Source of the DNA: a virus
Strand: one strand, 5' to 3'
Virus record (IMG/VR): IMGVR_UViG_3300045243_000070
Span: 1-64,000 of that record
DNA length: 64,000 bases
Shown here: piece after piece, positions 19,336 to 47,480 of the stretch
Numbering within the stretch: the stretch's first letter is position 1
Layout of the letters: every line of letters begins with the position of its first letter
Program-made: the position numbers and the translations under genes
Notes under the pieces: model-generated
The model's database searches: none
Seen by the model: the letters and a program-made list of their open reading frames with translations, nothing else
What the model was told of the DNA's origin: nothing

Positions 19336-19363
19336 AGGCCTATACTAGGGGTAGTGTAGGGTT

Positions 19364-19564: not shown

Positions 19565-19565
19565 A

Positions 19566-19640: not shown

Positions 19641-19678
19641 GTGCATCCCCCTTGGTGTGTCTTACTGCCTACATAGAG

Positions 19679-26112: not shown

Positions 26113-29100
26113 TTTTCTTAACTCTTTTTCTGTTATACTTCCCAATCATTTTTCTAACCCAATTCTCTGAAACACCTTTAGGTATTTCTATCCGAATCAT
26201 TTTTTCAGTAGGTGTTATATCCACGGCGCACTTTAGAGTCAATATACCTGTCTTCTTATTCTCCACAGCTTCCGCACCTTTGACATCTACCTTAAAACCA
26301 TGTCTAAGGAACCAAGCATAGTCTTTGGAGTTTTTAGCTTTCTCATAGTCAGACTCCAGATAAGCTTTCATCATTTTATGTTCATCTCCCTAAGTCTGGA
26401 CGCACAATTGTGGGTATCTCCAAAAGCCCAATCAAATAAACGACCTAGCCATCCGATGTCAGCGTTACACCTCTGGCAGTGGTGGCTCGGATATTTTGGT
26501 AGATCAAATCCTAGCTTTAAATAACACGGAGTGCAATACGTGTTCATTGGGGATGTTGGTCTTCCACACTTAATACATTCTTGTCTCATACTGCCCTCAT
26601 GTACTGTACCATCTGTGGGTCCTCTTTAGACTCAATACCAGAACCTTTACACTCATCGCATACTTCTTCTCTGTCGCAGTTCTTACCACATGCCGTATCT
26701 GTGCAGTCGGGGGCATGGACTTTAATCTTTTTCGACCCCTTACATCTGGAGCAATAAACTTGGTACGAACCCATACCCCAAGTTGCGTACATTTGGTATG
26801 TTGTAGATGACGATGCCGTACCAGATGTTGTTCCCAAAAATGTTGACATATTTTCCTCTAAAAAAGAAACTTTGGTTCAGTCATAACGGGGGTGTACTCC
26901 GCTTCACGGTATCTTGCAGCCCTAAGAGTGATTCTCCCGGTTGAAAGTAGTTCCTCGCAACTGTGGCAAAGTAGATGACCAAAATCAGTCATCGAAACAG
27001 CCTTATTAAAACACGCATGCCCAACCGGGGTTTCACCAATATACCTATTTTGGTCAATGAGCCCATCGCATCTGCACATTTGGTTTACTGGGAATATTTT
27101 TAGCTTCATTAAACCTCGATTGTTTCAAAATACTTTCTATCGTCTTCGTCCCATTCATTTCTGTAGATTACTTCTGCTTCCTCGCTTCCAGCCAAGTAAG
27201 CTCTTTTAAAACACTTATGGTGATAGTAAGCATCCCACTCAAAACTGAAAGACCACTTATCGTGATCCCCGTCTTGGTGGCAAAACCAACACCCTCCTTG
27301 GCTTGGGAAAGATTTAGCCATTACTAAGCCTTTTTCTTGCTTGGTGGGACTAAGTAGAACACGTTATTGTGGTCCCTCATGTGAGTTTCCACAATCTCCT
27401 TAGTATCTTCCATCGTTGGTTGGGCGATACCAAAATTTTGTTTACAAACCGTGCAGCTGAGTAGTGTGTAATCTCCTTTTGGATTTACCTTATCTTCCAT
27501 TTTATACCCACTTAACTTTTATTTTAAAGCCTTTTGCCTTTTCAATCAACTTGGTCAGAGCGTTTGGCGATGGGGCTATTACTTCTTTCTCCTCATCAAA
27601 CGTAGTAGTCGGCCCACCATTCTCTTTGTACTTGGCTACCAGGAGGGTGATAGACTCCTGCATTCTTTTTTCCGTGAACCCAAGGTCACACATCTTTCTG
27701 ACAACCATCCCATAAGAGAAGCACACATCATTTGGAGAATCCAAATTTTGAAGCATAAGGTAAATAGCTTTTAGGTTGTCTATCTTTTTGAACTGCTCTT
27801 CGTTCATTTGTAAACCACCTTGATTTTAAGCTTCTTTAGGAAGTTGGAAATCTTCGATGTTTTTGGTTGAGTATCTTCTTTACCATCTTCGGTTATTTTT
27901 TCATCTCCAGTAATTCCCCAAGCCTTAATAAGGTCTTTACTATTTGATATTCTTTCGGCTTCTCGTAACTTATCTCTCAGGGATTTAAATTTTTCCCAAA
28001 TAGCTTTTTTCTCAACATCTGTGAAACAATGAGACTTGGGCCACGTGTCTATGTATTTCTCACCATTGGCTATCCACAACTCCTGACCGCTTTTAATGTG
28101 TTTTATAGTATGCTCGTCTAATCTCCACTTTGACGTGTCGTTTAATTCCGACAGTATGAACTTAGCTAACATTTTGTCTCCTCATATACTCAGAAAATTC
28201 TTTATCGGTCATGACAACCCAGTTTAAAATTTCTAGGTGAGCCATCAACAAGAATTTTATTTGATCTGAGCTCACTGTTTTTAATTGAGCTTCGTTTCTA
28301 CGAATCATTTCCCTTATTTCAAGTTCGCTTTTCATCTCTTGGAACCTTTACCTCGACCTTGCACTTTGCTATGCCCAAGGCTATGTCCCTTAAAGTTTCG
28401 ACAGCGTATTCCCAATTTGGGACAGCGCCTCTGTGTTCACATAAAACCATACACAGACCAGCCAGCTTTCCAGCGGTCTCCATGTTTCGTCCTTCAATCT
28501 CTTTTTTACTAATTTTAGTTTTCATCTTCTTTCATTTCCACACTATATCCAACCAAGTTTTGTTTTTCATATGTGTAAACACTTTCACCAATAGTGATTA
28601 TTAGCTCCGACTCAGTGTCTACGAGTGTGTATTTCCTGAATTGAGTAGCGTCCAAGCCGGAAGCGTGAACAGTTAGGACTTTGGAGTATGTTTTCGGTGT
28701 TTCGGTAGGTGTGGGCTCAGGTGTAGCTTCTGGCTCTTGGGGTTGCGACTTTGGAAGTGCTTGCTCCTGAGAATTGCCGTCATCGTCATGATACTTGTGG
28801 TGATTCTCATTGTTGCCACATCCCTGCGACACTATTCCTATAAGCATCAGCAAACAAACGAGCATTACATTCTTTTTCATGAGTCTCCCTTTTATGTCCA
28901 AATCCACAAATACAGCACCTAATCATCCCTCCGGTATCGTATTTGTGGTAACTGAAACTACCTTCTTGTCCACAACCAAAACAATGATCGAAAAACAATT
29001 TTCCATACATTGGGCCACATTCAACGCAAGTTTCCCAAGGAGTAACACAATGGTAGCACTCTAGCTGTCCAAAACAATCCCTAGTAACTCTCATAGAACA

Positions 29101-30152
29101 TCCTCTTTAATTTCGTCCCAAAAAAGACCTATCCCTAGAAATACTCCGAGCAATACACAGAACCAAACGGACAAAGCGTTGTTGGTCCCATAGTCTCTAT
29201 CCAATGAAGACAGCATACCATCAACCACCCCCAATGTCAAGGAGAAAAACAATAAAATAAACACACGAAATTGATACCAGCCCCGGTCTGAAAAAGAAGG
29301 GTTTCTTCTAGGCATTTTGACCCTCTAGTTTAGGCGATTCAATAAGTCTTTGGATATCATCATCCAGGTCTTGAACCCGAATGATGACTCCACAAGACTC
29401 ACCCTTTTCATTATGTGTTTGTAATACTCCTACCCTGTCATTTGCGTCCATAACCCCTCATTTACATAAATCGTTATACTTCCACTCGTACTCTTTCAGT
29501 CTCTTTATCTCTTCCCTTAACTTTTCTATGTCATCGACCTCTTGAACCGGAGGAGGTTCAACCTCTTCATCACAATCAGAACATACCCATCCGATATCTA
29601 CCCACTTATCACTGTCTTTTACAAACTCGTGGAATCTGGCTTGGTGTGAACACTTTTCTTCGGGAAGCACAAGCCTATGGTCACCACCAATGGCGTGATT
29701 TTTATGATTGTAAGGTTCGTGGCAAAAATCACAAATAATTATTTTTTCAGAACTCATCGTTTTGAAACTCTCTGTCTATTAAAAATAACCGCCATCATGT
29801 GACGCAGCTCTTTTACTGGTGAGGATTTCTTATCTTTTTGAACTCTCTCTGCTGTCCAGTACTTATCATTTTCGTGTCTCCCATACCAAGGAACGGCATG
29901 TTCGTGGTAACACTCCATGAGCCCGCCAAATTCAAAACACTCCCCATCTTGAAACTCATCTCTAATCCAAACACAGGCTTCTTTACATATAGCGTGTTGC
30001 TTATAACTGGAGAACTCTCCGTCCCAAACCCCAGAACACACAACGTACTTTTCACCGGGGTTAATTACAACCCCACACTCACAACATCTATGTGATTTCC
30101 TGGCGGTTGGGGTATCCATTTTATATATTTCTGGTACGGAGCAATCAGTCAT
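26081..30152 (-). other. Run of about 14 small hypothetical CDS, many with CxxC motifs
   Basis: Coupled minus-strand ORFs from 26081..26374 to 29754..30152. Confidence 0.7.
28515..28880 (-). CDS. Lipoprotein with Pro/Glu/Thr linker
   Basis: MKKNVMLVCLLMLIGIVSQGC lipobox. Confidence 0.7.
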   Translation of the reverse strand: MKKNVMLVCLLMLIGIVSQGCGNNENHHKYHDDDGNSQEQALPKSQPQEPEATPEPTPTETPKTYSKVLTVHASGLDATQFRKYTLVDTESELIITIGESVYTYEKQNLVGYSVEMKEDEN

Positions 30153-31090: not shown

Positions 31091-32738
31091 TGTTCGTTCT
31101 CCAGTCTTCGTCTTTCTAGCTCTACGAGTGTTTCGGCTATTTCCTCGACCGACCCGTTCTTTACGACAGCCTCTCCATTCACTTTGATGTGAGAAAAGTC
31201 CGTCTCTTTCAACCCGCATTTCTTAACCACTAGCGGTGTCACTATCACATTGTACCCAGAAGTGATGTACTTGTCAACAAGTTCTTTTACATTATCTGGA
31301 GGTATCTCGATTTTAATAAGAATTATATCCCCTTCAGGTTTTACGTCTGGGTCCTCAAAAAACACCATTATTAGGTTATGAGCCTCGGATAGCGCTATAT
31401 TCAACAACATTGGTAGTCTCCTTGGCTAGATGTTCAGATAATACCCAATACTCTTTGCAATCACACCATTCCATCTTCCCAGTTTCTTTGTTAGGCCTTC
31501 TCCACATACACTGCCCAACTTTCCCACCATACACGTGAGGCCCTCTTCGATGACCGCACTCGCACCTGGGCCACGGAGGATTATGGACGTTATTTATACC
31601 CACCATTACTTATTGTCCTTTTTATATCCCCAAATAAGTCTTTGTAGGTTAGTCGGTTCGTTACTATCAACTAACTTACAAAAACTTACCCAAACAAAAA
31701 TACCGAATAAAAAATAATTAACGTGGTCCCAACATAAAAATAAGGCTAAGGACATTAAAGCGATAGCTTGAGCTATATTAAACTTTTTGGTGAACTTATA
31801 CGGTTTTCCCACTTAAGCCCCCAGTAACTGTTCGAGAAGGATTGTGTAGGTGTACCCACACTCATCGCACTCATAAACTATCGAATCTATAGTTTTTTCT
31901 TTGAATACCATCAAAACCTTGTTGCAGTAACACTTCTCATACAAATCTTCGAGAGACCTCATCTATATTTCCCCTTTCCCGCTAGGTCGTTTTGAGTGTT
32001 TCTGTCGTCCCCTCACCGAGGAGATGAATTTCTTTATAACTGTCCAACACAGTAGGCATGTCAGCATTAATACCTCAACCCTTTAGAGCGTCTAGACAAC
32101 CTTTTATTTGAGCCTTTGTAAGCTTAGTCTTGTTGATGTAGGCCATCTCCATTACAGGTAAGCCCTTCATTCGACCCGTCTCATGGATTCCAATTATTTC
32201 ACCTGTCATGATGTTGCAGTTTGAGCCAACATCCCGAATACCGCCTACCCTACAGCCCAATGATTTTTTTCCAATGGGTGTCGACCAGACGCATTTACTG
32301 CAATTGGTCGGCCCCTTCTTAGCTTGCTCTAGAACGCTTTTCATATCTTTCACAGTGTACCATACCCTTAACCATTTGTCAACTCTTTTTATTCAGTATC
32401 CCCGTCAGTTTCTTAATGTTCCCGTACTTCATAATAAGCTTAGGCCGAACCCCTTGGATAGGACCATACTTGATAATAGCTTCAATTTCTGGGCTTAATT
32501 TTACTGGTTCGGGTTCAACTTTTACCTCTTCCAATACTACTTCCTCTGGGGCCTTAGGCTTTTTATTAGCTATCCGTTTCAGCCTTTCTCTTCTTTTCTT
32601 ATCTTCCACCCTTCTTTGCTCTAATGAGACCACTCTTTGGCATTCCCTACAGTGAGTTGGGATTGACATCGCAAAGTTGTAGTACTCAAATTCGTTTCCA
32701 CAGCCATCGCACGTTTTCTTTTCCATGTTGTCGTACAT
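31087..32738 (-). other. Small hypothetical CDS (31087..31410, 31376..31606, 31606..31812, 32075..32344, 32379..32738)
   Basis: Packed minus-strand ORFs. Confidence 0.65.
32354..32382 (-). promoter_or_regulatory. sigma70-type promoter
   Basis: TTGACA-17-TACACT. Confidence 0.78.
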
Positions 32739-32770: not shown

Positions 32771-33658
32771 TTAAAAATTATCAACCTTTAGGTAGTCGTG
32801 GAACTCTTCTTCTTTATGGTATGCCCTAATCTTATCGTAGGCCTCAAGTTTCCAATTATGGACGGTCTGGACACTGACACCGTATTTTTTTGCAAGGGCA
32901 CGACCACTATAAGCCACTCCGTCTTTAAGGCCGAAAAGACTTGCCAGTACCGTCCCGTAATGTGATTTTTCCAAAATCTTTCTGACCTTTGTTTTGAGTT
33001 TCTTCTCACCATCAGAATTTTCAATCTCACGTAATGGGGACTCAGTACAAAGACCATGATCGTATCTCGGAAAAGACTCTCCGCTACCATCAACATTAGC
33101 GATGGTAATATCGCAATACATAGTGTTTGTTTTTAAGAGGATTGATTCGAGAGGGTGACCTTTGTACTTTTTACCAAACATTTTATGAATATCCTGTTCG
33201 GTCAGTCTTCCCTTTTCGTTCTCAATACTTTTCAACTTGTTTTTAAAGCTGTTTGCGACTCCAGATAGGTTTGCCGGAGTTCTAATAAGAGTCGAGTTAC
33301 TGTTTAGGGCATATATAATCTGTCTCTTAATCCAGAAATAGGCGTAAGTGCTGAACCGGATTTTTCTTTTGTATCTCCATTTGGTGGCAGCTTTCATAAG
33401 ACCGACATTACCATCTGAGATTAAGTCTTCGTAACTAATCCCCTTATTTTGATACTTACTAGCCACATGTACGACCAGTCCGAGGTTTGCGGTAACCAAA
33501 TCTTCTATAGCCTTTTTATCTCCTCTCTCTATTTTTTTACCTAGAGATTTCTCTTCTTCGTGGCTAATTCGACTGAACCTAGAAATATCCCGTAGATATA
33601 GCTTTATATTTGATATTTTATATTTGACATGTGGTTCATTGCTTGAAATATCGTTCAT
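32771..33658 (-). CDS. Phage RNA polymerase sigma70-family factor
   Basis: YLRDI (region 1.2), ANLGLVVHVASKY, DLISDGNVGLMKA, RFSTYAYFWIK, C-terminal HTH. Confidence 0.92.
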   Translation of the reverse strand: MNDISSNEPHVKYKISNIKLYLRDISRFSRISHEEEKSLGKKIERGDKKAIEDLVTANLGLVVHVASKYQNKGISYEDLISDGNVGLMKAATKWRYKRKIRFSTYAYFWIKRQIIYALNSNSTLIRTPANLSGVANSFKNKLKSIENEKGRLTEQDIHKMFGKKYKGHPLESILLKTNTMYCDITIANVDGSGESFPRYDHGLCTESPLREIENSDGEKKLKTKVRKILEKSHYGTVLASLFGLKDGVAYSGRALAKKYGVSVQTVHNWKLEAYDKIRAYHKEEEFHDYLKVDNF

Positions 33659-34739: not shown

Positions 34740-35849
34740 TTATTCCTTGTAGTGCTCCAAGAACTTGTTGGATACAACCTTGAAGGACACACGGCCCTTC
34801 ATGTAGTCGCTGTATTTCTCCACGAGCGGACGGAACACAATCCCCTCTCTTGGAGTTCCGTTGGCATAGGAGCCATCAGCCATAGCCAGCATTTCATCAA
34901 ACTTGCGTCCAGTGAAGTCGAAATTGGAGTCAATAATCTCGACAGTCTGTAACCCCAATTCTTTGGTGAAGGAAATGAACTCATCAAAGTTAAGATGTCT
35001 GCGTTCAGAGATGTTGAACACATTGAACACAAAGAAGTCAACCTCCTTCAAGCCCATCTTGTTGCCTTGGATGCCAGGACCGCAGATTTCACCTTGGACG
35101 GCGTAATTTCCTTTGGCCTTAAGCTTATCAAGGATGTTGTATTTCTGTTCCATTTGGAAGTACACGTTTGGCTTATCCCCCTCAATTGGAGCCTTGAGAG
35201 ACAGTTTGCGTGAGCAGACGTGTTGTTCACCATCCGTCAGTCCATCCGGCAAGAAGTTGATGTAGGTTGCTGAGGTTCCATCCATCTTGACGGAAGCGTA
35301 ACCCTTGACCCCATTAAGCTCTTCCAGAATTCGTGAGCAGTTTTGAAGACGTTCTTCGTCCGTAACTGACACGTATTTGGTGGGGAAGTTACCCTTAATC
35401 TTTCCATGTAGGTTGGCGGGAATAGGTTTCTCATACTTGGTAACACCAATGAGGGTGGTGATGTCATCACCGACCAGCATTCCTGCGAACCCAACGGTTC
35501 CAGTCGATAAACCTTCAATCCCAGGTTCTTTTTTTAAATCTGTCAGCTGGATGATAAGCCCCTGAGAGAGTTGTTTCTTCAGGCGAATGGTGCGGACACG
35601 GAAGTGACTCTTCCGTAAAAATTCGGACCACGGGGCTTCTGGAACTACAGTATCAATGGCAATAAAACATACTAGGTCTCCAACCTTATGCAATTCTTTC
35701 TGAACAACCACCTGCCATTCATTGTCTTCCATTTTAGCCAGTTCTATCTTATCAGCATCGGGTATTGGGCTAAGGGATTTAATTTTTTGAATAGTGGCTA
35801 AATTTTTAACCACCTCTACTGTTTCTACAGTCTCTGAAACTTCACTCAT
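34740..35849 (-). CDS. RNA ligase, DRB0094/Rnl5-type (N-terminal OB plus Rnl2-like NTase)
   Basis: IPDADKIE, LSQGL, KMDGTS, QGEICGPGIQGN, REGIV and SFKVVSN motifs. Confidence 0.9.
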   Translation of the reverse strand: MSEVSETVETVEVVKNLATIQKIKSLSPIPDADKIELAKMEDNEWQVVVQKELHKVGDLVCFIAIDTVVPEAPWSEFLRKSHFRVRTIRLKKQLSQGLIIQLTDLKKEPGIEGLSTGTVGFAGMLVGDDITTLIGVTKYEKPIPANLHGKIKGNFPTKYVSVTDEERLQNCSRILEELNGVKGYASVKMDGTSATYINFLPDGLTDGEQHVCSRKLSLKAPIEGDKPNVYFQMEQKYNILDKLKAKGNYAVQGEICGPGIQGNKMGLKEVDFFVFNVFNISERRHLNFDEFISFTKELGLQTVEIIDSNFDFTGRKFDEMLAMADGSYANGTPREGIVFRPLVEKYSDYMKGRVSFKVVSNKFLEHYKE

Positions 35850-36226
35850 TGTAAATACTCCTTTGCTTTTTGTAATAATTCAACGCTATCTCTAAATAAA
35901 CCTAATCCAGAATTACACCGATGGCATAAAATTCCACGAATATTCCCAGTCTTGTGGTCGTGGTCTATACAAGCTCTACCTTCAGTACCTTTTCCACGAA
36001 CCTCTCTTTTTAATGGGTAGCCACATATCCCGCATCTCCCACGAAAAGCTTGATATAAGGCCTCAAAATATTCCTCATCTATTCCATACTTTTTTAAATA
36101 ACCCCATTGTTTTTTATACTCACTTAAAGTTCCAGTTCGTATCATCCTACTTAAACAATGACATTTTCGACACCTTTTCCCCCATGTCATCGTGGAGCAA
36201 CCAAGGCATTTTTTCTTCTTACTCAA
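35846..36226 (-). CDS. Endonuclease VII-family homing endonuclease
   Basis: CGIC..IDHDHKTGNIRGILCHRCNSGLG. Confidence 0.88.
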   Translation of the reverse strand: MSKKKKCLGCSTMTWGKRCRKCHCLSRMIRTGTLSEYKKQWGYLKKYGIDEEYFEALYQAFRGRCGICGYPLKREVRGKGTEGRACIDHDHKTGNIRGILCHRCNSGLGLFRDSVELLQKAKEYLQ

Positions 36227-37101
36227 ATAAATGTTCCATCTCCAACGTCAATGACGTTTATTTTTTCCGTTCTGAGCATTTCAATAACACTCACCCGGTC
36301 ATCAAACCAAAATTTAATCTTGCTCTTATCCAAAAGCCTATCAATGAACTGCTTCTTCACGACAGTGTCTGGACGAGTGTCTTTAGACGGCCTCATGATG
36401 AACCTGTCTGGCTCGATATTATACTTATAAAGCCACTCTTCACGAACTTGACGATAATCCTCAGAGCACCCAGATACAATAATCAAGTCCAGCCCATTCG
36501 CTTGGTGACGAAGAACCGTTTCAATAATGTCAAGACGTGGTGCATCGTTAATGCTTTGACGAGAGAACTCGTCCCAATCCGGTTTCTTTCCAGTAGACTT
36601 ATCGACCAGATAACGTCTTTTACTGACATCACACAGAGTCCCATCAAGATCACTGACTACACAATTGTTGGTAGACCTCAATATGTTATACCTGAAAGCT
36701 GTGTTTAATATAGTGTCTTTACCAACAAAGCGTTTTCCAGAAAACTGTCTATCTAAATCCCTCTCAATACACTCTCTAACCGGGGTGTCTACTTTGACTT
36801 CCTCAAAGTCGGCATTGTACCTCTCAGCCAACACCTTGTAGGCGGTAGCATTTGACGGAGCTAAGTTCATATTATCAATGACCACGTTGTGGCCCTGGCT
36901 CAAGAGGTGTTCAACCATGAACTCATTGGCGAGGTGAATCATCTTCTCGTGTCTTGGGTCAAAATTCTCAAAATACATCATCTTGCGTAGACTGTCTTTG
37001 TTCACGCAAAACGTGTTTCGGTTTTCCTTCACGATCTTTTGAGCAATTGTGGACTTACCACTGCCTTGAAGACCTTGGAGCATCCAAATTTTTAATTTCA
37101 T
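36223..37101 (-). CDS. pseT: Polynucleotide 5'-kinase/3'-phosphatase
   Basis: GLQGSGKST P-loop; DLDGT HAD motif; FDDR. Confidence 0.92.
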   Translation of the reverse strand: MKLKIWMLQGLQGSGKSTIAQKIVKENRNTFCVNKDSLRKMMYFENFDPRHEKMIHLANEFMVEHLLSQGHNVVIDNMNLAPSNATAYKVLAERYNADFEEVKVDTPVRECIERDLDRQFSGKRFVGKDTILNTAFRYNILRSTNNCVVSDLDGTLCDVSKRRYLVDKSTGKKPDWDEFSRQSINDAPRLDIIETVLRHQANGLDLIIVSGCSEDYRQVREEWLYKYNIEPDRFIMRPSKDTRPDTVVKKQFIDRLLDKSKIKFWFDDRVSVIEMLRTEKINVIDVGDGTFI

Positions 37102-37241
37102 TTCTTCCTACCGATTTATTATAGACAACAAATAGCTAAAAATATCAACCAACCCCAGCCTTCCTTACCATACCACGCCAGAAAAATAGCTCCGGCAGTC
37201 GCCAATAGTGCAATCCACCAAGACCCTTTCATGAGTCCTCC

Positions 37242-38396
37242 TTAAGTATTTTTGCTCACCTTATGAATCATTTCCAGAAGAGAGTCATCCCGAAGCCCCA
37301 TCAAATACTCTTTCAAACTGTACAGACAGGTCTTGTTATCATAAAGAGCGAAGAGAGTGTTTGGAAAGGACTTTTTGTAAGCTTCGATAGCAAAAGCCTT
37401 CCGGTTAATTTTTACTTCCCAAGTCTGGTTATCTGCTGGCATTTCTCTCCAGTCCGCACGAATAGTATCCTCTACTTTTTGTAATCCGTCAAGTAGTTTC
37501 TGAATATGGGCTGTGTATTCTGGGAAATAGGCCAAAGTATCGTCCACTTTCCCCAACTTAATCACCTCTAAGAAGCCTTTCTCTGAAACAGAGGAAACCA
37601 TTTTAGACAAGGCTAGGTACGCAGGGTTCTTGCACTTGACACGCAAGTGGGAACCGTTGTTTTGTTCCTTTACAATCACATAACCCTCAAACGTAGGGTC
37701 TTTGGAGCTCATATCCTCAATCTCGGTCCATTCAGATACTGGAAATGTTTTGACCAAATCACACTTAAAAACATCTGCCATAGTTTGAAGCTCGTGTCTT
37801 GTTACTTCGCACAGGTTTTCGTTGCTACGAATAGTTAGAAGAGTTATTTTTGTTTCTTTGTATGGAGTAACTATTCTATTTTCTGGGCTAGTGAGCTCAA
37901 AAACATAGGTGCATCTTGGATTAAGTAATTTGTTTTCTATCAAATACTCTAACTTTGTCCCATTATCAACACCATCCATAAAAAGTTCCGCAAAGCTCTT
38001 AGAGGAACAGTTATTAACAGGCCCCTCGGCATAAATCATGTTTCTAGTGCTGAAATGCCACGAATTGGCAATACGGTCAAACCACATATTGACCATTGTT
38101 CCATCAAGTTTCTCTAAAACCAAACAACCGCTCAGGTCTTCTGGAAGTTTGTCGGCCCCGCCCTCCCCTAAGTTGAAGAAACGTGAGAACCCATAAGAAG
38201 CAATATCATAATTGTCTTTGTACAGAATAAGACCACGGCACTCCCTAACAATGGGGTCACCTTTGAACTTATAGCTGTCAATCATATCGTATGAAAATAT
38301 GAACTTGCCACCCAGCTCTTTGAAATTGATTCCAAGAGGGGCGCAAATTTCTTCGGGTGTCTTTCCAGACCGTAGAGCTTCTTGTATTTTTAACAT
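37242..38396 (-). CDS. T4 Rnl1-like RNA ligase
   Basis: RECRGLI, RFFN, EKLDGT, FELTSPENRIV, EGYVI and RVKCK motifs. Confidence 0.9.
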   Translation of the reverse strand: MLKIQEALRSGKTPEEICAPLGINFKELGGKFIFSYDMIDSYKFKGDPIVRECRGLILYKDNYDIASYGFSRFFNLGEGGADKLPEDLSGCLVLEKLDGTMVNMWFDRIANSWHFSTRNMIYAEGPVNNCSSKSFAELFMDGVDNGTKLEYLIENKLLNPRCTYVFELTSPENRIVTPYKETKITLLTIRSNENLCEVTRHELQTMADVFKCDLVKTFPVSEWTEIEDMSSKDPTFEGYVIVKEQNNGSHLRVKCKNPAYLALSKMVSSVSEKGFLEVIKLGKVDDTLAYFPEYTAHIQKLLDGLQKVEDTIRADWREMPADNQTWEVKINRKAFAIEAYKKSFPNTLFALYDNKTCLYSLKEYLMGLRDDSLLEMIHKVSKNT

Positions 38397-38401
38397 GTTA
38401 T

Positions 38402-38430
38402 ATCCTACCACAAGATAGCTACGGTGTCAA
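38402..38430 (-). promoter_or_regulatory. sigma70-type promoter giving a leaderless Rnl1 mRNA
   Basis: TTGACA-17-TAGGAT, 5-nt gap before ATG 38396. Confidence 0.75.
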
Positions 38431-39563
38431 GCATTTTCTTTTCTAAGGTCTGTGCTAGAAACATGCTCGTATTTTCGTGGTTCCAGAACCCACTCCCCAG
38501 GCAAGACCGTATCTCCTGTACCCCACAGACCTAAGGCCTTGCCGTTACTTCTTGGGAAGATGTAAAAATAGTTTCTGTTACCAGTGAACATCGAGCAAAC
38601 ATACTCAATGGACCCAGCATACTTAGGGTTCAGGATTCTCTCGTAGGTGTCATAACCAATGATGAACTTTGCATCATGAAACAGTCTGGACTTCTCTACG
38701 AATGTCGGTGCATTGGTTATCAGCATAGGCATGCCATTTTGAACCAGTCTGTCTCTAATTGAGATAAAGTCAACCGCAGGCTTGTCAACGTTGGCAATAC
38801 TTATTTCTTGAATAACTTTGCAACCCCTACGAGCAACTATTTCCATCATCTCACGATGTCCGCTATGCGTGGGATTAAAGCTTCCTGGGAATATGGCTGT
38901 ACGGCTGTCCACGTAGTTTGAGAGGTCGAGGGTATCGGTTCCGACAAAACCTTGAAACTTTATTTCCCCACTTAAGATTTTACCAAGCTTCTCGTTCTCG
39001 AACCAATCGTATTCTATGGACTGCATTACAGGCGTATCCAACCTAACCTGTAATTCAAGGTCGTGACCATTGGCGAGTTCGTTTAGAATAAGATTAGTAG
39101 CTATCTCTTCTTCCCAAATTCTAACAACCTCTGCGTTTTGATCTTTCGTACCTTTAATCTTAAAACTCATGGTGTGGGTCATATTTTTAGTCTGAAGAGC
39201 GACATAGATAGCATGCTCACGTCCCTCACGCTCAGAAGGTACACGTTGTAGGCTTGCTGTACAGGCCACACCTATGACCTCATAGTCCCCATCACGAAGC
39301 TGGAGGGCTTTTTGATAAGCCACCATAGCTAATGACCGAGCCACTTCACCGCTCACCATCTTTTCGGGAACTTTTCCCAAAAGAGTGGAGGTTTCTTTAG
39401 TGCTGTATGGGACGTACCCAGCCAGCAAAGTATTGGACCCATTACCACGGTTGAGGAGAGCCTGGAAAACTCCAGACCCTCCACCAGTCGTGATTATGAC
39501 GGCCTTATGAGTAGCTAACCCATTAAGTGTGTCGACTACTTCTTCCTGAGTCCTGATACCCAT
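38427..39563 (-). CDS. CinA/PncC-like domain fused to NMN/NaMN adenylyltransferase
   Basis: TTGGG..VPYS..VSGEVARSLA N-domain; FPGSFNPTHSGH (HxGH) and SSTDLR C-domain. Confidence 0.85.
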   Translation of the reverse strand: MGIRTQEEVVDTLNGLATHKAVIITTGGGSGVFQALLNRGNGSNTLLAGYVPYSTKETSTLLGKVPEKMVSGEVARSLAMVAYQKALQLRDGDYEVIGVACTASLQRVPSEREGREHAIYVALQTKNMTHTMSFKIKGTKDQNAEVVRIWEEEIATNLILNELANGHDLELQVRLDTPVMQSIEYDWFENEKLGKILSGEIKFQGFVGTDTLDLSNYVDSRTAIFPGSFNPTHSGHREMMEIVARRGCKVIQEISIANVDKPAVDFISIRDRLVQNGMPMLITNAPTFVEKSRLFHDAKFIIGYDTYERILNPKYAGSIEYVCSMFTGNRNYFYIFPRSNGKALGLWGTGDTVLPGEWVLEPRKYEHVSSTDLRKENA

Positions 39564-41077
39564 TAGAGACCTTTCTTAGTGACCAACCCGGCGATTTTGT
39601 GATACATCTGAGTCGAAATAGCGTCCCCATGAGCCGGGACAATAGTCATTAAGGTATTGATACGGGCTTTGAGTTCATCAAATGTAAGCCATTTGATATC
39701 CACGGGGCCTTTATCATAAACAACCTGCAACATGTTCTTATCGACTTCTGTTTCCGCAGGATAAACCTTAAGGCTCAAAGTGTCCTTATCGGCTGCGACT
39801 TTCATAATGCCGGGGAGCGAATACTTCCCCTTGTCGTCCGAAGGGCGCTTCATGATGTCAAGAGTCGCTCCAGTATTGTAGGTAATGTGGCTCAGCTTAG
39901 TAGCCATCGAGAGAGTATCCCGGTTTAGTTTCTGAAGCAACCCGGCTCCCATTCCGAAAGCGATATTCTCGGCGCTGAAGCCAGCCTTCTCAGCAGCGTC
40001 CAAGATTTTACCAATCTCGGTGATGGTGATTCCATCACCCTGAATGACCGCAGCGTTGTTGATAACTTTGTATCCCTTTTTATTGAGGACGGTTCCAAAA
40101 GCTTTCTCAGCAGCGTGTAGGCCTTGAAGAACACATTCCACGGGGTCGCCCGAATCTGGTCGAAGAACCCACAGGCCGAACTTCCCAGCAAACTTCTGGG
40201 CCACGGCTGGAACAATCTTATCCAAAAAGTTGGTGTAGTTGTAGCTATCACCAACGGTGGCGAAGATTCCAAGCTTATTGACCAGTTCGTTTTGTCCAAA
40301 CATCTGCATCATGCGTTCCACAGCTTCTTGTTCTGTGGCATAGCTTGTCATGACCGAGTGCTCAGTAGCTGGGATGCTGGTAGCTACGGGACGGCCCTCG
40401 TTCAGGTGGAACTGGGCGTAGTAAGCAGCCGACATAGTGTCCGACCCGCCGAAGTTAAGTAGGTGAGCAACACCGCCGATTACCGCTTGCTCTTGCGAGG
40501 TGCATCCACGATACCCAAAGTCGTGGAGACGGCTGTCGAGCTTCCAGAAGCTCTCAGGGTCAACCGTTTTTTGAAAAAATCCCTCGATGAGGGTTCTGGC
40601 GTGACGGCTGAGGGTAGCCACTGTCGTGGGATACCAAATCATCGTCAGCAAGGTCTCAAGATAGGTGCAAAGATGGGCGTAGGGGGCTTCCGCAGTGATT
40701 TGATAGATAGGAGTATGTGGGTAGATAACCGAACCCTCTTCGAGAGCTTCCACTTTGATTGGGAAGTAACCGTTGTTTTCTTTTATGAATTTCAAGAACA
40801 GGTTTTTGGGGAAGGGATATGGAGTGAAAGCAGCATTGTGGGTTTGGAAGAACTTGTCGGCTTCCTCGACTTCTTCCACAGTCCACTTATGATTCAAAAC
40901 GTTTTCAACGATGTAGCGGATTCCAAAAAACACGATGCGGTCATCGTCAATGCCGGGATAAGCTTTTCGTAGCTCCCCGTAGGCCACCATCTTTTCTGCA
41001 TTCGGGTACATCATGTAATGACCTGCCTTGTAGCTATCCGTCCGAACCGGGAATGGAATATCGTTGATGCTTTTCAT
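39563..41077 (-). CDS. nadV: Nicotinamide phosphoribosyltransferase (NAMPT)
   Basis: TDSYKAGH, LHDFGYRG, PATEHS, RPDSGDP, IQGDG, FGMGAGLLQK. Confidence 0.93.
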   Translation of the reverse strand: MKSINDIPFPVRTDSYKAGHYMMYPNAEKMVAYGELRKAYPGIDDDRIVFFGIRYIVENVLNHKWTVEEVEEADKFFQTHNAAFTPYPFPKNLFLKFIKENNGYFPIKVEALEEGSVIYPHTPIYQITAEAPYAHLCTYLETLLTMIWYPTTVATLSRHARTLIEGFFQKTVDPESFWKLDSRLHDFGYRGCTSQEQAVIGGVAHLLNFGGSDTMSAAYYAQFHLNEGRPVATSIPATEHSVMTSYATEQEAVERMMQMFGQNELVNKLGIFATVGDSYNYTNFLDKIVPAVAQKFAGKFGLWVLRPDSGDPVECVLQGLHAAEKAFGTVLNKKGYKVINNAAVIQGDGITITEIGKILDAAEKAGFSAENIAFGMGAGLLQKLNRDTLSMATKLSHITYNTGATLDIMKRPSDDKGKYSLPGIMKVAADKDTLSLKVYPAETEVDKNMLQVVYDKGPVDIKWLTFDELKARINTLMTIVPAHGDAISTQMYHKIAGLVTKKGL

Positions 41078-41090
41078 CTTACTTCTCCTT

Positions 41091-41582
41091 TTATTTGTTT
41101 AGAAGCTCAACACAATTTAAAATAATCTGATTGTGGTCATCGTGAATCTCTTCTTTTGTGAAGTTCCAGACATCATCTACCTTCACCCAAAAAGCCCTCG
41201 TTGCATCGTCCCCGCCGTTTAACTCAAACATGTTATCAACTACGAAAACATGGGCAGTGGTTATCTTCCTATTCCCAACCGTTGTTCTGGATGGGTCATC
41301 AAAGTGAAGATACCCAATATACTTTGATGAAGTAACAGATAGGGATTTTCTCAATGAAACCCCAGCCTCTTCCTCCAACTCCCTATGAGCTGCCATGAGT
41401 GACGTTTCATCGTACTCGACAAACCCGCCGGGCAAAGCGTACTTCTTGTTATCCCCTCTTTCAATCATTGCGACCACAAGCCCGTGTGTTGGGTCTTTGC
41501 AGAAAACCACAGCATCTGCACAGACCATAATGACAGGGTACTTCTCACCGGGCTTGAACTCGTAGGTTATTAAATCTTTCAT
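41091..41582 (-). CDS. Nudix hydrolase, ADP-ribose pyrophosphatase-like
   Basis: ALPGGFVEYDETSLMAAHRELEEEAG, GGDDA, DHNQI. Confidence 0.88.
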   Translation of the reverse strand: MKDLITYEFKPGEKYPVIMVCADAVVFCKDPTHGLVVAMIERGDNKKYALPGGFVEYDETSLMAAHRELEEEAGVSLRKSLSVTSSKYIGYLHFDDPSRTTVGNRKITTAHVFVVDNMFELNGGDDATRAFWVKVDDVWNFTKEEIHDDHNQIILNCVELLNK

Positions 41583-43892: not shown

Positions 43893-44691
43893 GGCAATTA
43901 TTCCTTTTCTACGTCTCTTATAAAAATTATTTTTTCTACTGAGGACTTCCAATTACGTTTAAACTCGTCTAACTGTTCTTGAGTTAGACCCTTTTTCATA
44001 ACCAGAACAGCAGGTTCATTATCATCTTCAAAACAATAACAAATATCTCCAAGTGGATTTTCAGCCAAACACTCGACACAACCGGAACCGTTACTTCCCT
44101 TTGAGAAGTGGTAGTCCTTTTCGTGGTGACAGAACCCACACTTCATATTGAATCAACTTTTTTCTCCGGCTTCTGTATGTACCACGAATGACCGCCGTAC
44201 CCGCTGAAGTAGATTCGACCATCAACGTGCCCGTGATTTCCACTAACTCCTCCATACTTAACATCAAACCCGCAGGAATACTCTTCGCCGATTACTTCAA
44301 AAAACGCCGAATCTTTTCCATTTTCTCGAAGGACTATATCTGTAATCTTGTTTTCTGGGCACTCATCAAGACCCATAGCTCGGTCCATTGAATCCCCGTG
44401 ATCTTTTAGTATTCCACCAATCCACGCTTCTTTACCTTCAACGAACTGGCTCCAAAGTGGGTAAGCCCTACCATTTACTGTTATCAAAAAACACCTCAGT
44501 TATTTATTTTGCTTCCCTTAATTTTCATAAGGTGCTCAGTCAGATGGTCGTTCTCTTCTTTTGAAAACTCGGAGTTTTCCACCTCTTGAAAAACAACTCC
44601 GTGAACGGCTGACATATGCTCCAACACATCAATTTCCTCTAAGAGTTCTTTGCACAGATTGCACTGGTGAGTAGCTTCCATAGGTTCTCCT

Positions 44692-45327
44692 CTATATTTC
44701 AAAGGTAACTGCCGGATTAACTGGTTTGTAGCGAACATCACAACTTGAGGCATTTAAAAACGTAGTGGTTTTTGAGTCATTAAACCATCCAAACTCCATC
44801 CGTCCATAACCTTCGTGTATGTGACCAAATACATTAAACCTTGGTTTAGCCTTAAGGCAACGGTTGAATAGTGACTCACTACCAACATACCCGTCTCTTT
44901 CTACTTTGTCAAGCACTTTTTTTGGCGGACCGTGGGTAATCAGCATATCCAAGTCTTCTGGTATCTTAGAAAATACCTCTACAAGGTCGTGGTCTGGCTT
45001 CATAAAGGCCCAACGTCCATATTCGGGAACCCAAGGGGAGCCATAAAATCTCTTTCCATCTATTTCAATAAACTCGTCTATAAGCAGAGTTGCATGGGTA
45101 AGTTCTTGTTTGCACATCTGGGGAAGTTCTTCACAAATGAAGTCATGGTTGCCTGGGACAAGCAGGATTTTTTTTGCCGGGAGGGTTCCAAGCCATATGT
45201 TGAATTTCATTAGCTCAACTAATGAGCCACCCATAGAAAAATCTCCGCAATGCAAAAGTACGTCACATTCTGGTATATGCAAACTTTCATGTTTATTGTG
45301 CGTGTCACTAATTGCGACAATCCTCAA
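44692..45327 (-). CDS. Calcineurin-like metallophosphoesterase
   Basis: SDTH, GDFS, GNHD, THGPP, GHIHE. Confidence 0.9.
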   Translation of the reverse strand: MRIVAISDTHNKHESLHIPECDVLLHCGDFSMGGSLVELMKFNIWLGTLPAKKILLVPGNHDFICEELPQMCKQELTHATLLIDEFIEIDGKRFYGSPWVPEYGRWAFMKPDHDLVEVFSKIPEDLDMLITHGPPKKVLDKVERDGYVGSESLFNRCLKAKPRFNVFGHIHEGYGRMEFGWFNDSKTTTFLNASSCDVRYKPVNPAVTFEI

Positions 45328-45866
45328 AGTCCGCTCCTATGCCTTACCAGCCTGTCTAGGTAGGCCATAAATTCTTGATATGTTTTATCCAACTTTGCAG
45401 AATTACAGAATCTACAGCAACTAACACAATTTCCTCTTACATATCCCTTAGAACTATCAACCCTATCAATACCATTATATTTAATCTCAACTCTTCTTTT
45501 TTCTGGTCCATAAGTATTGTCTGGCTCACACCCACAATAGTGACAGTTACCTTTTATTAGAGCCACAGTCTCATCTATTGCTAACGAGAAACTCTTTCCC
45601 CTAAGTTTGGCTTGGGCCTTTATGTTACCTGCCTTGGCTCTAAATGAAGCCAATTCTGGGGGATATTTTTTGTTTCCATGACCCCACGTAAAATTTAAAC
45701 ACCCGCAAGACTTTACAAGACCTCTAAGCAGATGAGAAGTCGTAACGTCTCTATTCATTCCGCAAACACACAGACACTTCCAAACAACACCTATTTTATC
45801 TCTTTTCTTTTTCATTACCAATAAACTACCAAATTTTAAACCTTCAAGTTTTGGGGAAACGCTCAT
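45324..45866 (-). CDS. HNH endonuclease
   Basis: WKCLCVCG..SCGC N-domain; CHYCG..GIDRVDS..NCVSCCRFCNSAK. Confidence 0.85.
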   Translation of the reverse strand: MSVSPKLEGLKFGSLLVMKKKRDKIGVVWKCLCVCGMNRDVTTSHLLRGLVKSCGCLNFTWGHGNKKYPPELASFRAKAGNIKAQAKLRGKSFSLAIDETVALIKGNCHYCGCEPDNTYGPEKRRVEIKYNGIDRVDSSKGYVRGNCVSCCRFCNSAKLDKTYQEFMAYLDRLVRHRSGL

Positions 45867-46033
45867 TTTTGTTTCTTTTTGGTATCAATCTTTTGGTTAA
45901 GCTTTGCGCCCTCTTTACGAGCCAATAAAGTTGCTTGTTCTTCCGTTATCAGCCCCTGATTAATTGCTTCAACCAGTAGGTCAACGGTTACGTTTATCTT
46001 TCTAATTTTTTTATTTAATATTTCTTTTTTCAT
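45863..46033 (-). CDS. 56-aa basic hypothetical protein
   Basis: ATG 46033; TGA overlaps HNH ATG. Confidence 0.6.
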   Translation of the reverse strand: MKKEILNKKIRKINVTVDLLVEAINQGLITEEQATLLARKEGAKLNQKIDTKKKQK

Positions 46034-46051
46034 TTTAAATTTCTTTCTATA

Positions 46052-46226
46052 ATGTTTTACGTCTAAACACCAAGTAAGAGTCCATCGGTTTGCACACCTA
46101 GACCAGGAGGTCCGACCCTCTTAAGTTCCCATAAACTGGACTTAGGCCCAGTCAGCGTCAGGTCTTGCAAGTTTCCCTCCGCTTTATGAGTCACCTACTT
46201 ACATACAGTGCTTAGACATCAAACAT
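46052..46226 (-). ncRNA. Unassigned multi-branched structured RNA (element C)
   Basis: About 20-bp closing helix with G-U pairs plus several internal helices; no ORF. Confidence 0.7.
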
Positions 46227-46228
46227 CT

Positions 46229-46402
46229 TAAGTCACCCAAAACTGGGGTGGGGCTACTGTAGTGCGTTGCCGGGTCTCATGAAAACCCAACCGTGGGACT
46301 CGAACCCACATCTCCAGCCTTTGTGCTGGTGTCCTACCATTAGACGAGAAATGCACTATGAGGCTGCTCCCGCTTTGACCAACCCCATTTTCCGGTGACT
46401 TA
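46229..46402 (-). ncRNA. Structured RNA with tRNA D/anticodon/T arms on a long non-tRNA stem (element B)
   Basis: GTCTAATGGTAGGAC D arm, CCAGC-ACAAAG-GCTGG arm, GTGGG-TTCGAGT-CCCAC T arm; no acceptor stem; outer stem TAAGTCACC/GGTGACTTA. Confidence 0.78.
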
Positions 46403-46413
46403 CTTATGGACAC

Positions 46414-46442
46414 AGTGTACTACAAAACAAACAACTTGTCAA
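46414..46442 (-). promoter_or_regulatory. sigma70-type promoter for elements B and C
   Basis: TTGACA-17-TACACT; +1 a few nt before the outer stem. Confidence 0.82.
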
Positions 46443-46454
46443 GTAAAAAAAGAA

Positions 46455-46546
46455 ACCTGGGGTGGGGATTGCAACCCACTAGTGGAGGGCTATCCCCCAC
46501 ACCTAACAACTGAACGCCCATGTGTGTCTTACCACACCGCCCAGGC
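46455..46546 (-). ncRNA. Non-canonical tRNA-like RNA with long variable arm (element A)
   Basis: Acceptor GCCTGGG/CCCAGGT, D arm GTGT/ACAC, variable hairpin, T stem GTGGG/CCCAC; aberrant anticodon arm and T loop. Confidence 0.72.
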
Positions 46547-46567
46547 TTTCCCTACTAAGGAAATACA

Positions 46568-46596
46568 ACTATACTCCAAAACATTCTTTTTGTCAA
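46568..46596 (-). promoter_or_regulatory. sigma70-type promoter for element A
   Basis: TTGACA-17-TATAGT. Confidence 0.8.
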
Positions 46597-46618: not shown

Positions 46619-46629
46619 TAAATTTTAGC
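46619..46629 (+). promoter_or_regulatory. Putative late promoter motif
   Basis: TAAATTTTAGC upstream of protease. Confidence 0.6.
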
Positions 46630-46661
46630 CTTTAAGAGGCTCAATTATCAAGGAGACCGTC

Positions 46662-47480
46662 TTGCCCAACCCAGAAACAAAAGAAGAATTTGAAAAGTTC
46701 GTAGATAGCAATCCCAATAAGGCCTGGAAATTTTACCTACCTTTTGGTGATGAGTATATTGAAAAATCTCTTACGTCAGAAAAACAAGACACTGACGAAA
46801 AGAGTTGGAAGATCGGTGGGATTGCTTCAAGCAACGAAGAAGATTTGGAAGCTGAAATTGTTGTTCCAGAAGGAATTGATGTCAGCTATTTTTTGAAGTG
46901 GGGTTGGTTCAACTCCGAACACAAAAAAGGCGCTGCATATAAAGTTGGGATTCCAACCAAAGCGATGTGTACGAGAAAAGGTCTTGAAGTTGAAGGATAT
47001 CTTTTAAAAGATATGCCCGAAGCGCAGGGCATTTATACCTTAATGAAGACGTTGAGAAAGGGAGATCACAGACGCTCAGTTGGTTTTTCCATCGAAGGAA
47101 AAACTGTCCTTCAACAAGGAAAAAGAATTCTTAAAAGCTTCCTCATCGACATTGCCATTACAGCCAACCCAGTCAACCCTACAACCTATGCCGACCTTGT
47201 GAAATCACTTAAAACATGCTCTACAGATAACTCACTGGAATCCATGTCTTACCTCTCTACCGATAAGGCTTTAGAGGCTGGATATGCTGTAGATGGTCAA
47301 ACCGGAGGGGACGCTTTGAGGACTCAAGACCTCGAAAGAAAGCTTAAAATCCTCACAAATAAGAGCTTTTCACCGGAAGATGCCTTGGAATACGTGAAGC
47401 TTAAGGCCGGGGTTACTGACGATGTAGCCAAGAAGATTCTAAAATATTCAGACCTTCTTAAGAAGCTGAAGGGTCAATAA
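46662..47480 (+). CDS. Prohead protease
   Basis: IGGIAS..DLEAE, NSEH, GFSIEG, AITANPVN; TTG start with AAGGAG. Confidence 0.9.
   Translation: MPNPETKEEFEKFVDSNPNKAWKFYLPFGDEYIEKSLTSEKQDTDEKSWKIGGIASSNEEDLEAEIVVPEGIDVSYFLKWGWFNSEHKKGAAYKVGIPTKAMCTRKGLEVEGYLLKDMPEAQGIYTLMKTLRKGDHRRSVGFSIEGKTVLQQGKRILKSFLIDIAITANPVNPTTYADLVKSLKTCSTDNSLESMSYLSTDKALEAGYAVDGQTGGDALRTQDLERKLKILTNKSFSPEDALEYVKLKAGVTDDVAKKILKYSDLLKKLKGQ

Follow-up and report, generated by a model that had tools for sequence, protein, structure and literature searches.

Three structured non-coding RNAs (ncRNAs), termed here elements A, B and C, are encoded at 46051-46596 on the minus strand of a 64-kb window. The window, the whole stretch of DNA that was analysed, comprises the first 64 kb of the 72,981-bp IMG/VR phage record IMGVR_UViG_3300045243_000070 (G000). 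It is very probable that the three elements form a real and conserved module of structured ncRNAs, which derives from tRNA genes and is not a set of tRNAs. The cluster has two promoters, its elements fold, a tRNA body is present in B, paralogy links A with B, and the trio is conserved, with compensatory changes, in a second phage. The latter, the nearest relative, is the record IMGVR_UViG_3300037067_024941 (G001), of which L054 and L001 are pieces.

Promoters and folds of the RNA cluster

Minus-strand genes span positions 1-46,033 of the window, and the prohead protease gene (46662-47480) and the capsid genes are on the plus strand. The RNA cluster lies at this strand switch, at the head of the minus-strand early/middle block. 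A previous sequence-only reading had described here some 550 bp without a credible open reading frame (ORF), and this is borne out: the ORFs that overlap the stretch are all short (33-77 aa), and none of the six tested has a PHROG match at E<=1. Two consensus promoters, P1 and P2, are present on the minus strand as that reading had stated (Table 1), and a 39-nt block at one is 72% identical to that at the other (repeat D1). Save for a 10/12 match at 46651..46622, they are the most upstream intergenic promoters of the minus block. The description of these promoters as dedicated to the RNAs did not survive, since the same type occurs at 37 minus-strand and five plus-strand sites in the whole 72,981-bp record, in line with gene orientation. 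Given this genome-wide set, P1 and P2 are real-looking early promoters of the general early type of the phage, which is not special to the RNAs.

Table 1. Positions of the RNA elements, promoters and neighbouring genes in the window and in G001
Feature	Position	Strand	Basis or remarks
Promoter P1, TTGACA-17-TATAGT	46596..46568	-	11/12 consensus matches; predicted start ~46561
Element A, ~105-115 nt, cloverleaf-like four-way junction	46447..46561	-	fold and homologues in G001
U-rich tract UUUCUUUUUUU	46445..46455	-	directly 3' of the closing helix of A, just before P2
Promoter P2, TTGACA-17-TACACT	46442..46414	-	10/12 consensus matches; predicted start ~46407
Element B, 174 nt	46229..46402	-	fold, terminal helix, Rfam tRNA match inside
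tRNA body in B	46293..46347	-	RF00005, 33.3 bits (gathering 29), model positions 10-63
Extra 10-bp hairpin in B, GUUGGGUUUU-CAU-GAGACCCGGC	46269..46291	-	predicted folds; directly 3' of the T arm of B
Element C, 177 nt, branched interior	46051..46227	-	fold; alignment with G001 element X
First downstream ORF, 56 aa, no family	45863..46033	-	shares the transcript of B and C
HNH / endonuclease VII-like homing endonuclease gene	45324..45866	-	PHROG 1035, E 2e-15; PHROG 3118 HNH, E 4e-12
Small Cys/His protein gene	44496..44753	-	G001 homologue directly after RNA trio
Phage sigma-70 family factor, regions 1.2 and 2	32771-33658		homologue in G001
A1 (G001)	L054 11696-11858		R3 cmsearch 20.9 bits, E 0.005; after promoter, heads 18-tRNA array
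Trio promoter-A2-X-Y (G001)	L054 17285-17900		promoter TTGACA-17-TACAAT; small Cys/His ORF next
A2 (G001)	L054 17340-17515		R3 cmsearch 35.3 bits, E 4e-7; fold z -2.8
X, ~200 nt, long terminal helix (G001)	within the trio		z -4.5
Y, 153 nt, long terminal helix (G001)	within the trio		z -3.2

Element B folds at -71.7 kcal/mol (z -4.43), and none of 200 shuffles folds as well. Its two ends, 46382-46402 and 46229-46249, form a terminal helix of 19 bp (9+4+6, with two 1x1 mismatches; inverted repeat I1), inside which come internal loops, then a 6-bp helix UAGUGC/GCACUA, and then the tRNA body. This body consists of U8-C9, a D arm GUCU-AAUGGUA-GGAC, A26, an anticodon-like arm, a variable region AGAU and a T arm GUGGG-UUCGAGU-CCCAC. 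The anticodon-like arm has a 5-bp stem CCAGC/GCUGG and a 6-nt loop, ACAAAG, with no U33-type context. As read from the sequence, the core and elbow positions are all present (U8-A14, A15-U48, G18/G19 with U55/C56, and U54-A58) and the flanks pair at 3 of the 7 acceptor positions, leaving B with no acceptor stem; nor is a CCA end encoded. The extra loop-closed hairpin that the predicted folds place after the T arm may stand in for the acceptor stem, at the acceptor's stacking place. Thus B can be neither charged nor used in decoding, given a loop of 6 nt and a closed hairpin in place of the acceptor end. Of the three elements, B alone has the tRNA arms and conserved loop nucleotides, A and C being unmatched by the tRNA model at E<=10, and it has neither an acceptor of 7 bp whose 3' end is free nor an anticodon loop of 7 nt.

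Element C follows closely behind B, as had been noted from the sequence: B ends at 46229 and C starts at 46227, a gap of 1-2 nt. It is closed by a G-U-rich terminal helix of 21 bp (46206-46227 / 46051-46072). The minus-strand fold of C reaches -66.0 kcal/mol (z -5.23; 0 of 200 shuffles), against -41.3 kcal/mol (z -2.0) for the plus strand, and this far stronger fold marks C as a minus-strand RNA. B is less asymmetric, its plus strand folding at -65.9 kcal/mol (z -3.8), with the tRNA-model match on the minus strand only, and A folds about equally on the two strands. The earlier description of the elements as non-coding, promoter-driven structured RNAs of the minus strand is supported. Among the 17 non-coding gaps of the record, the one that contains the cluster has the most extreme fold z-scores, in a rough survey with 25 shuffles per window.

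Element A has a closing helix of 9 bp (46540-46548 / 46453-46461), which G-U pairs could extend, and a mini-hairpin 5' of its four-way junction. The arms of the junction are a D-like hairpin, a weak 4-bp hairpin with a 6-nt loop UUCAGU, a 9-bp variable arm and a T-like arm, GUGGG-UUGCAAUC-CCCAC, with an 8-nt loop. The fold has -45.6 kcal/mol (z -2.15), and 5 of 200 shuffles are equally good. In a 751-nt search at E<=10 the Rfam tRNA model (RF00005) does not match A. Judged by that model, A is a conserved cloverleaf-like four-way junction and no tRNA mimic, so that of the two mimics proposed from the sequence B stands (33.3 bits) and A does not. The U-rich tract that follows the closing helix may, from its sequence, terminate the A transcript; it is not called in a consensus terminator scan, and it is absent from the G001 copies of A.

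The view that the cluster contains no functional tRNA was upheld: ARAGORN calls neither a tRNA nor a tmRNA gene over the 64-kb window, and B has no acceptor end and a loop of 6 nt. If A or B were nonetheless an unusual working tRNA, it would have to be trimmed or spliced, charged and used in translation, for example in recoding. An intact core in B would suit such a role, and odd genes do exist in tRNA arrays, such as that at G001 L001 2172-2278 with its encoded CCA. Against this, B pairs at 3 of 7 acceptor positions, has a 6-nt loop outside a U33-type context and no CCA, and ARAGORN rejects A, B and the G001 element Y, so that a part in translation is scarcely credible.

The sole Rfam fit in the cluster is the partial tRNA match in B; beyond it, the 751-nt search returned at E<=10 just an insignificant CRISPR-DR8 (15.6 bits) and KRAS_3UTR. 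For a tmRNA, standard or permuted, there is no ARAGORN call and no Rfam tmRNA family at E<=10. Readings of the cluster as GOLLD, ROOL, 6S, T-box, retron, CRISPR repeat or tmRNA were dropped, as apart from these two insignificant matches no further Rfam family appeared at E<=10.

A counterpart trio in a related phage

G001 is 73% identical to G000 in the protease and 82% in the capsid protein. A promoter-plus-motif pattern brought up the larger piece of G001, and cmsearch with R3, a model of A, then found two copies of A there, A1 and A2. A2 follows a promoter and is the first element of a trio, A2-X-Y (Table 1). The predicted helices in A1, A2, X and Y have 16-23 bp. Y also contains a tRNA body, with a D arm GCUC-AACUGGUA-GAGC, a stem CCCGG/CCGGG carrying a 6-nt loop AUGGUA, and a T arm CUGGG-UUCGAUC-CCCGG. 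The Rfam tRNA model matches Y with 18.8 bits over positions 8-63, the acceptor again being absent, and ARAGORN, run on G001, does not call Y as a tRNA; with no acceptor end and a 6-nt loop, Y can no more be a tRNA than B. B and Y have the 3' junction AGUAGCCCC in common.

The RNA regions of the window and of G001 can no longer be aligned by BLAST or nhmmer; what is kept is therefore structure. In an alignment of A, A1 and A2, standard pairs occupy all of the pair cells (77/77), and 15 of the 32 pairs are changed on both sides. None of 500 shuffles reaches any of the five measures used, and sliding the pairing partners by 1-3 columns gives at most 3 double-changed pairs. Single-stranded motifs are kept as well, namely the 5' junction GGGCGG(U/C)GUGG, the loop UUCAG(U/A) and the T-like loop UU(G/A)CAA(U/G)C. 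C and X, compared with MAFFT and RNAalifold, have conserved ends and 39 shared predicted pairs, of which 14 are double-changed (slid controls at most 4); this is a weaker test, with 100% pairing by construction, because the structure was predicted on the same two-sequence alignment. The covariation that the sequence-only reading had named as a check is thus present for A and weaker for C.

The surroundings of the trio are also shared. A small Cys/His protein follows it in both phages (33% identity, E 1e-9 by BLASTP against L054:17905-18120), and both blocks contain a sigma factor gene, the G001 homologue (L054 19085-19984) lying 1.2 kb downstream of the trio. These conserved flanks support orthology of the two loci.

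Several points besides the weakness of the C/X comparison weigh against a conserved module. The fold of A by itself is within the chance range (z -2.15), and the A alignment comprises three sequences, two of them paralogues of one genome, fitted to the model structure. B and Y, again compared with MAFFT and RNAalifold, share just 18 pairs, one of which is double-changed, and their tRNA bodies differ in type, that of B being Gln-like and that of Y Gly-like; the 5' flank of Y resembles the tRNA-Gly of G001. Going by their sequences, B and Y may be independent captures into the same frame and not orthologues. The order of the trio also differs, A-B-C in the window against A2-X-Y in G001. Members of the family are known from just two phage contigs, and scans of IMG/VR and the JGI metagenomes by pattern otherwise gave chance matches. 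The listed holders of the stretch are two DNA runs and include no RNA run.

Comparison of the sequences clearly indicates that the elements derive from tRNA genes and are related to each other. The best matches in G001 of R1, a single-sequence model of B, are tRNA-Gln(ttg), with 20.9 bits, and tRNA-Gln(ctg), with 17.1 bits. When B is searched with blastn against the phage collection, its core alone finds matches, with 77-80% identity to phage tRNA-Gln genes. The T arms of A and B are 80% identical over 15 nt, and their 3' closing strands, CCCCACCCCAG(G)UUU, are 93% identical over 15 nt (repeat D3; 1 of 300 shuffles reaches the score). With the promoter block, the T arm and the 3' closing strand common to both, A and B are paralogous units. 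An interior part of C (46119-46139) is 81% identical to the 3' end of B (repeat D2). Upstream of its protease gene G001 carries 18 tRNA genes on the same strand; the window has none.

Such an origin raises the question of whether the cluster is no more than the decaying remnant of a tRNA array, made up of eroded pseudo-tRNAs whose helices are leftover or chance. It would account for the 18 tRNAs that G001 keeps between the protease gene and the trio and that G000 lacks, for the tRNA-Gln-like core of B, and for the duplicated fragments that tie the three elements together; pseudo-tRNAs with 6-nt loops are also found singly elsewhere, in phage KKP_3916 and in three of nine IMG/VR pattern loci (see below). 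Debris, however, would not hold all stems of A paired through 15 double changes, nor would it preserve a perfect tRNA core in B or gain terminal helices of 19-21 bp (z -4.4 and -5.2). It would also not be expected that a promoter-driven trio, with its flanks, is kept in a phage whose DNA is no longer alignable. For A the idea of remnants is already largely refuted. As the whole story it is improbable, because the trio keeps its architecture and, for the A type at least, shows compensatory changes.

Searches for further members gave little beyond G001. The 701-nt region has no blastn match among 50,697 phage records, and nhmmer searches with A, B and C against 11 loci returned nothing but a tRNA-Gln fragment. 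A protease-based search of JGI metagenomes gave 475 pattern matches and no relatives. In IMG/VR, a pattern for the spacing of the B core had no match, and one for a tRNA-Gln-like body one base short matched nine loci, none of them B-like: six are ordinary tRNA-Met, and each of the remaining three is a lone pseudo-tRNA whose acceptor is normal and whose loop has 6 nt. The pattern of a promoter with the A motif matched 25 loci, of which 24 were chance (mostly coding) and one was G001. T-arm motif patterns gave chance matches, two in IMG/VR and 12 in the JGI metagenomes, none with an upstream A motif. With default filters, cmsearch over the 354,941 bases of G001-G005 found A-type matches in G001 alone; an earlier genome search with the single-sequence models R1-R3 had missed the G001 copies, which makes its blanks for G002, G003 and G005 weak. 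R2, the model of C, gave nothing significant (best 9.1, 8.4 and 7.7 bits), R3 does not match the expanded tRNA-like RNA of phage KKP_3916, and aligning the window region globally, by MAFFT, to what lies upstream of the tRNA array in G001 was uninformative.

Two gaps of the G001 array, both on the minus strand, contain RNA-like folds of their own. One (L001 2172-2278), not called by ARAGORN, has 107 nt and folds like a tRNA, with GGCGGUG/CACCGCC as its acceptor and an ACCA end that is encoded. The other (L001 253-447), between tRNA-Val and tRNA-Ile, is a 196-nt RNA with a closing helix of about 17 bp and -78 kcal/mol.

Known RNAs and the possible role of the trio

The sequence-only reading had proposed an undescribed system. 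This is too strong for the kind of RNA involved, because additional RNAs, stable or abundant, had been recorded before in the tRNA regions of phages, in T4 (rnaC and rnaD) and in Listeria phage CKA15, and Y-RNA-like mimics are known too. The family itself is not in Rfam and is undescribed.

In the annotation of T4, rnaC (species 1, 139 nt) and rnaD (species 2, 119 nt) come right after the tRNA genes. The former has a canonical T arm, paired ends and a fold z of -4.57, with a weak tRNA-Sec-like Rfam match (17.5 bits). To our knowledge the function of the species 1 and 2 RNAs is still unknown. The likeness to the trio is that of stable non-tRNA RNAs at the distal end of a tRNA cluster holding a homing endonuclease gene, which in T4 is segB, inside the tRNA cluster (PMC2330249). 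The T4 RNAs differ in that they have no terminal helices of 19-21 bp and no D or 6-nt-loop arms, and in that they follow tRNAs and not a promoter. As for what defines the T4-like kind, tRNA-derived parts are present in the cluster, the window has no tRNA array, and the RNAs would be stable. The tRNA array of G001 has A1 directly upstream and the trio 2 kb downstream.

A parallel of distantly shared lineage is offered by CKA15, a P100-like member of the Herelleviridae. In this phage, three regions without annotation that adjoin the tRNA genes are transcribed at very high levels, giving abundant early RNAs with TTGAC..TATAMT promoters and no canonical terminators (PMC12282133). Its authors propose Y RNAs together with an Rsr-like protein, CKA15_055, encoded downstream of the tRNA region (same source). 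On the minus strand of the related Listeria phage A511 a tRNA array is followed by a zinc-finger protein and then by an 'RNA-binding protein', an RtcB-type ligase, an RNA ligase and phosphoesterases, and two A511 promoters have the exact hexamers of P1 and P2. Unannotated gaps in its tRNA region (L086 26143-26801, 26877-27213, 28524-29143 and 31497-32165) hold sigmaA-type promoters and folds. Folds with long terminal helices lie at 28951-29108 (z -4.5), 28683-28862 (z -3.3) and 31811-32022 (z -7.5), and the gap folds are probably the abundant early RNAs reported for CKA15. The trio is thus like the CKA15 and A511 RNAs in its distantly shared lineage, its promoter type and its long-terminal-helix folds, in a comparison made by promoters, folds and descriptions only. 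It differs in that A511 and CKA15 carry a Ro-like 'RNA-binding protein' that was not found in G000 or G001.

Pseudo-tRNAs with 6-nt loops in other phages differ from B and Y, for they keep a 7-bp acceptor and have no terminal helix, whereas B and Y are without an acceptor end. A gene of the tRNA-Gln type with a 6-nt loop lies unannotated in the Alicyclobacillus phage KKP_3916 (OQ846916.1; cultured, from soil) at L016 1494-1563, where ARAGORN reports 'tRNA-???'. The same phage has, at L016 1719-1841, an unannotated expanded tRNA-like RNA of 123 nt with an 11-bp closing stem (Rfam tRNA 28.2 bits, z -4.97).

The architecture of B most recalls the bacterial Y RNAs. These are described as a long 5'/3' stem with a tRNA-like module, occurring as tandem RNAs co-transcribed near tRNAs, and Yrn1 of D. 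radiodurans as having a 5-bp 'anticodon' stem with a 6-nt loop between D and T (PMC4201824). B has the same order as Yrn1 (D, a 5-bp stem with a 6-nt loop, T), and in its 19-bp terminal helix, its tRNA body and its genetic link to RNA-repair genes it resembles YrlA, Yrn1/Yrn2 and Yrl1/2 of phage phiLo. Unlike them, B has retained all of the D, anticodon-like and T arms, together with an additional closed hairpin that resembles an acceptor, and B and C, with 174-177 nt, exceed the 80-130 nt stated for Y RNAs (PMC4201824).

Could the trio be true Y RNAs, whose Ro60 (TROVE) protein comes from the host or from the 58% of the phage genome that is missing, and serve in a Ro-Y RNA-exonuclease complex as in Deinococcus, Salmonella and the Thermus phage phiLo? 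The stem with its tRNA-like module, the tandem arrangement and the Yrn1-like loop all fit, and the record of G000 is 42% complete. Phages offer precedents: phiLo has Ro60 with two Y-like RNAs upstream (PMC12135203), some jumbo phages with RNA-repair genes have TROVE with a tRNA-like partner (PMC7824862), and an Rsr-like protein has been proposed in CKA15 (PMC12282133), the A511 counterpart being annotated as an 'RNA-binding protein'. The partner is what fails to appear. TROVE/Ro60 (PF05731) is absent from G000 and from all five relatives' records, which are fragments (24-87% complete), control genomes having matched; RtcB was not found in G000, nor was a gene like A511 gp57 in G000 or G001. 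Regular-expression searches of A, B and C found neither the Ro motif GNCGAAN0-1G nor the metazoan GGUCCGA. These blanks tell against a Y-RNA-like role in general as well as against true Y RNAs. Against the latter there are also the excess size of B and C and the 45 kb that continue downstream on the same strand with no Ro gene, as compared with YrlA genes that lie at most 4 kb from Ro on the same strand (PMC4201824). With no Ro60 gene or Ro motif found, the trio cannot be filed as Y RNA, and a Ro partner outside the record is a rather unlikely explanation.

Because a related phage keeps the same trio, the RNAs probably serve some function, for which protein binding as tRNA look-alikes is the most likely candidate. 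We infer that the trio is expressed and processed, has a binding partner and plays a role, along the following lines. Genes of a phage tRNA region would have evolved into three stable ncRNAs that are no longer tRNAs, and the host RNA polymerase would transcribe these early from the sigma-70/sigmaA-type promoters. The long terminal helices (9 pairs in A, 19-21 in B and C) would be RNase III-type excision sites, or stabilising or protein-binding stems. A protein that recognises tRNA shape might bind the tRNA-shaped heads, and the RNAs might then act in the manner of bacterial Y RNAs, as decoys or scaffolds in an RNA damage/repair conflict. The gene context (Rnl1, Pnkp, Rnl2-like, SAK-type HAD, AlkB-like, Nudix) fits such a conflict. 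The specific decoy or scaffold mechanism is tentative, being held with appreciably less than even confidence. The roles put forward from the sequence alone, as decoys for tRNA-targeting defences or as scaffolds for RNA repair, are likewise putative. Module and mechanism taken together as the best explanation of the whole come closer to an even chance, though still somewhat below it, as a compromise between a firm part and a speculative one.

A different job is conceivable, that of cis-acting 5' leader or processing elements (sites of the RNase III or RNase P type, stabilisers or antitermination elements) that set the fate of the downstream mRNA or tRNA transcript. RNase III substrates have about 20 bp or more of near-continuous duplex, a size that the 19-21-bp terminal helices match, and processing of early RNA by RNase III in the SPO1-like phage SP82 is reportedly cited in B. 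subtilis studies. An A-type element comes first after a strong promoter in all three cases (P1-A, A1 before the tRNA array of G001, and A2-X-Y before genes in G001), and the elements that come after P2 and ahead of the first ORF are B and C, the latter followed by no terminator. However, a processing site needs neither a complete tRNA core nor a branched 177-nt fold, and A looks like a separate short transcript, since a U-tract and a second promoter follow it. This explanation has the best claim among the alternatives and is unlikely by itself. It is also compatible with stable RNAs, as excision could release them.

A more specific form of the look-alike idea starts from the loop of B. CUUUGU, which is an anticodon loop of the tRNA-Gln(UUG) type lacking one base, has ACAAAG as its exact reverse complement, so that the arm of B resembles a tRNA-Gln anticodon arm turned round; ACAAAG also contains the Lys codons AAA and AAG. 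B-type RNAs might therefore be 'anti-tRNAs', tRNA bodies that display a codon-like loop in place of an anticodon. The loop would kiss the anticodon loops of host or phage tRNA-Gln or tRNA-Lys, and alongside Rnl1 and Pnkp it would protect these tRNAs against PrrC-, RloC- or PARIS-type anticodon nucleases, or else titrate such enzymes. We consider this very unlikely.

For the extra stable RNAs of phage tRNA regions, a defined family with conserved structure is now supplied. It has a clear anatomy, a trio that includes a tRNA body disabled for translation, in a phage rich in RNA-repair genes. If the RNAs mimic tRNA independently of Ro and bind a protein of the host or of a defence, phages would have in them a new class of RNA-based counter-measure, and the old question of what such RNAs do would become testable. 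If they are processing modules only, they are still an example of how regulatory RNA structure is made from reused tRNA genes.

Genome and gene context

The phage record G000 has a CheckV completeness of 42%. Its major capsid protein is at most 45% identical to those of Bacillus SPO1-like phages and matches 779 phage records, chiefly Staphylococcus, Bacillus, Enterococcus and Listeria phages; these matches make it a distant Herelleviridae-like myovirus. The stretch is present in two soil-metagenome DNA runs, one of them possibly the source run, which points to a soil phage. The contigs of both runs are identical, and therefore no sequence variation is visible.

Past C the gene order is the 56-aa ORF, the HNH homing endonuclease gene and a metallophosphoesterase gene, and the consensus terminator scan finds no terminator between C and the 56-aa ORF. 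The small Cys/His protein matches no Pfam or PHROG family. RNA-repair genes are found on the minus strand of the window at 1928-3304, 5046-6029, 25561-26145 and 34740-38411; the set includes two HAD_SAK_2 proteins, an AlkB-like 2OG-Fe(II) oxygenase, an Rnl2-like ligase (PHA02142 OB domain), Pnkp and Rnl1. At 38427-41582 there are a NAMPT-family (NAPRTase/NAMPT_N) enzyme, beside its gene that of a cytidylyltransferase-like protein, likely an NMNAT, and a Nudix hydrolase. The investment of this phage in RNA damage and repair genes is unusually heavy.

Some further observations concern other parts of the record and other phages. An ArdC-like anti-restriction N-terminal domain is fused to a zincin metallopeptidase (MPTase-PolyVal) at 17547-18416 on the minus strand of the window. 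In the Erythrobacter phage XM05 (PV416404.1) an unannotated permuted tmRNA follows the tRNA array at L017 1578-1982 (tmRNA_permuted 99.9 bits, alpha_tmRNA 85.2). On the minus strand of the window, 11935-12114 and 19137-19316 also fold beyond their shuffles (z about -3.9, 25 shuffles each), and the 1.35-kb gap at 18417-19771 has several promoter-like sites on both strands.

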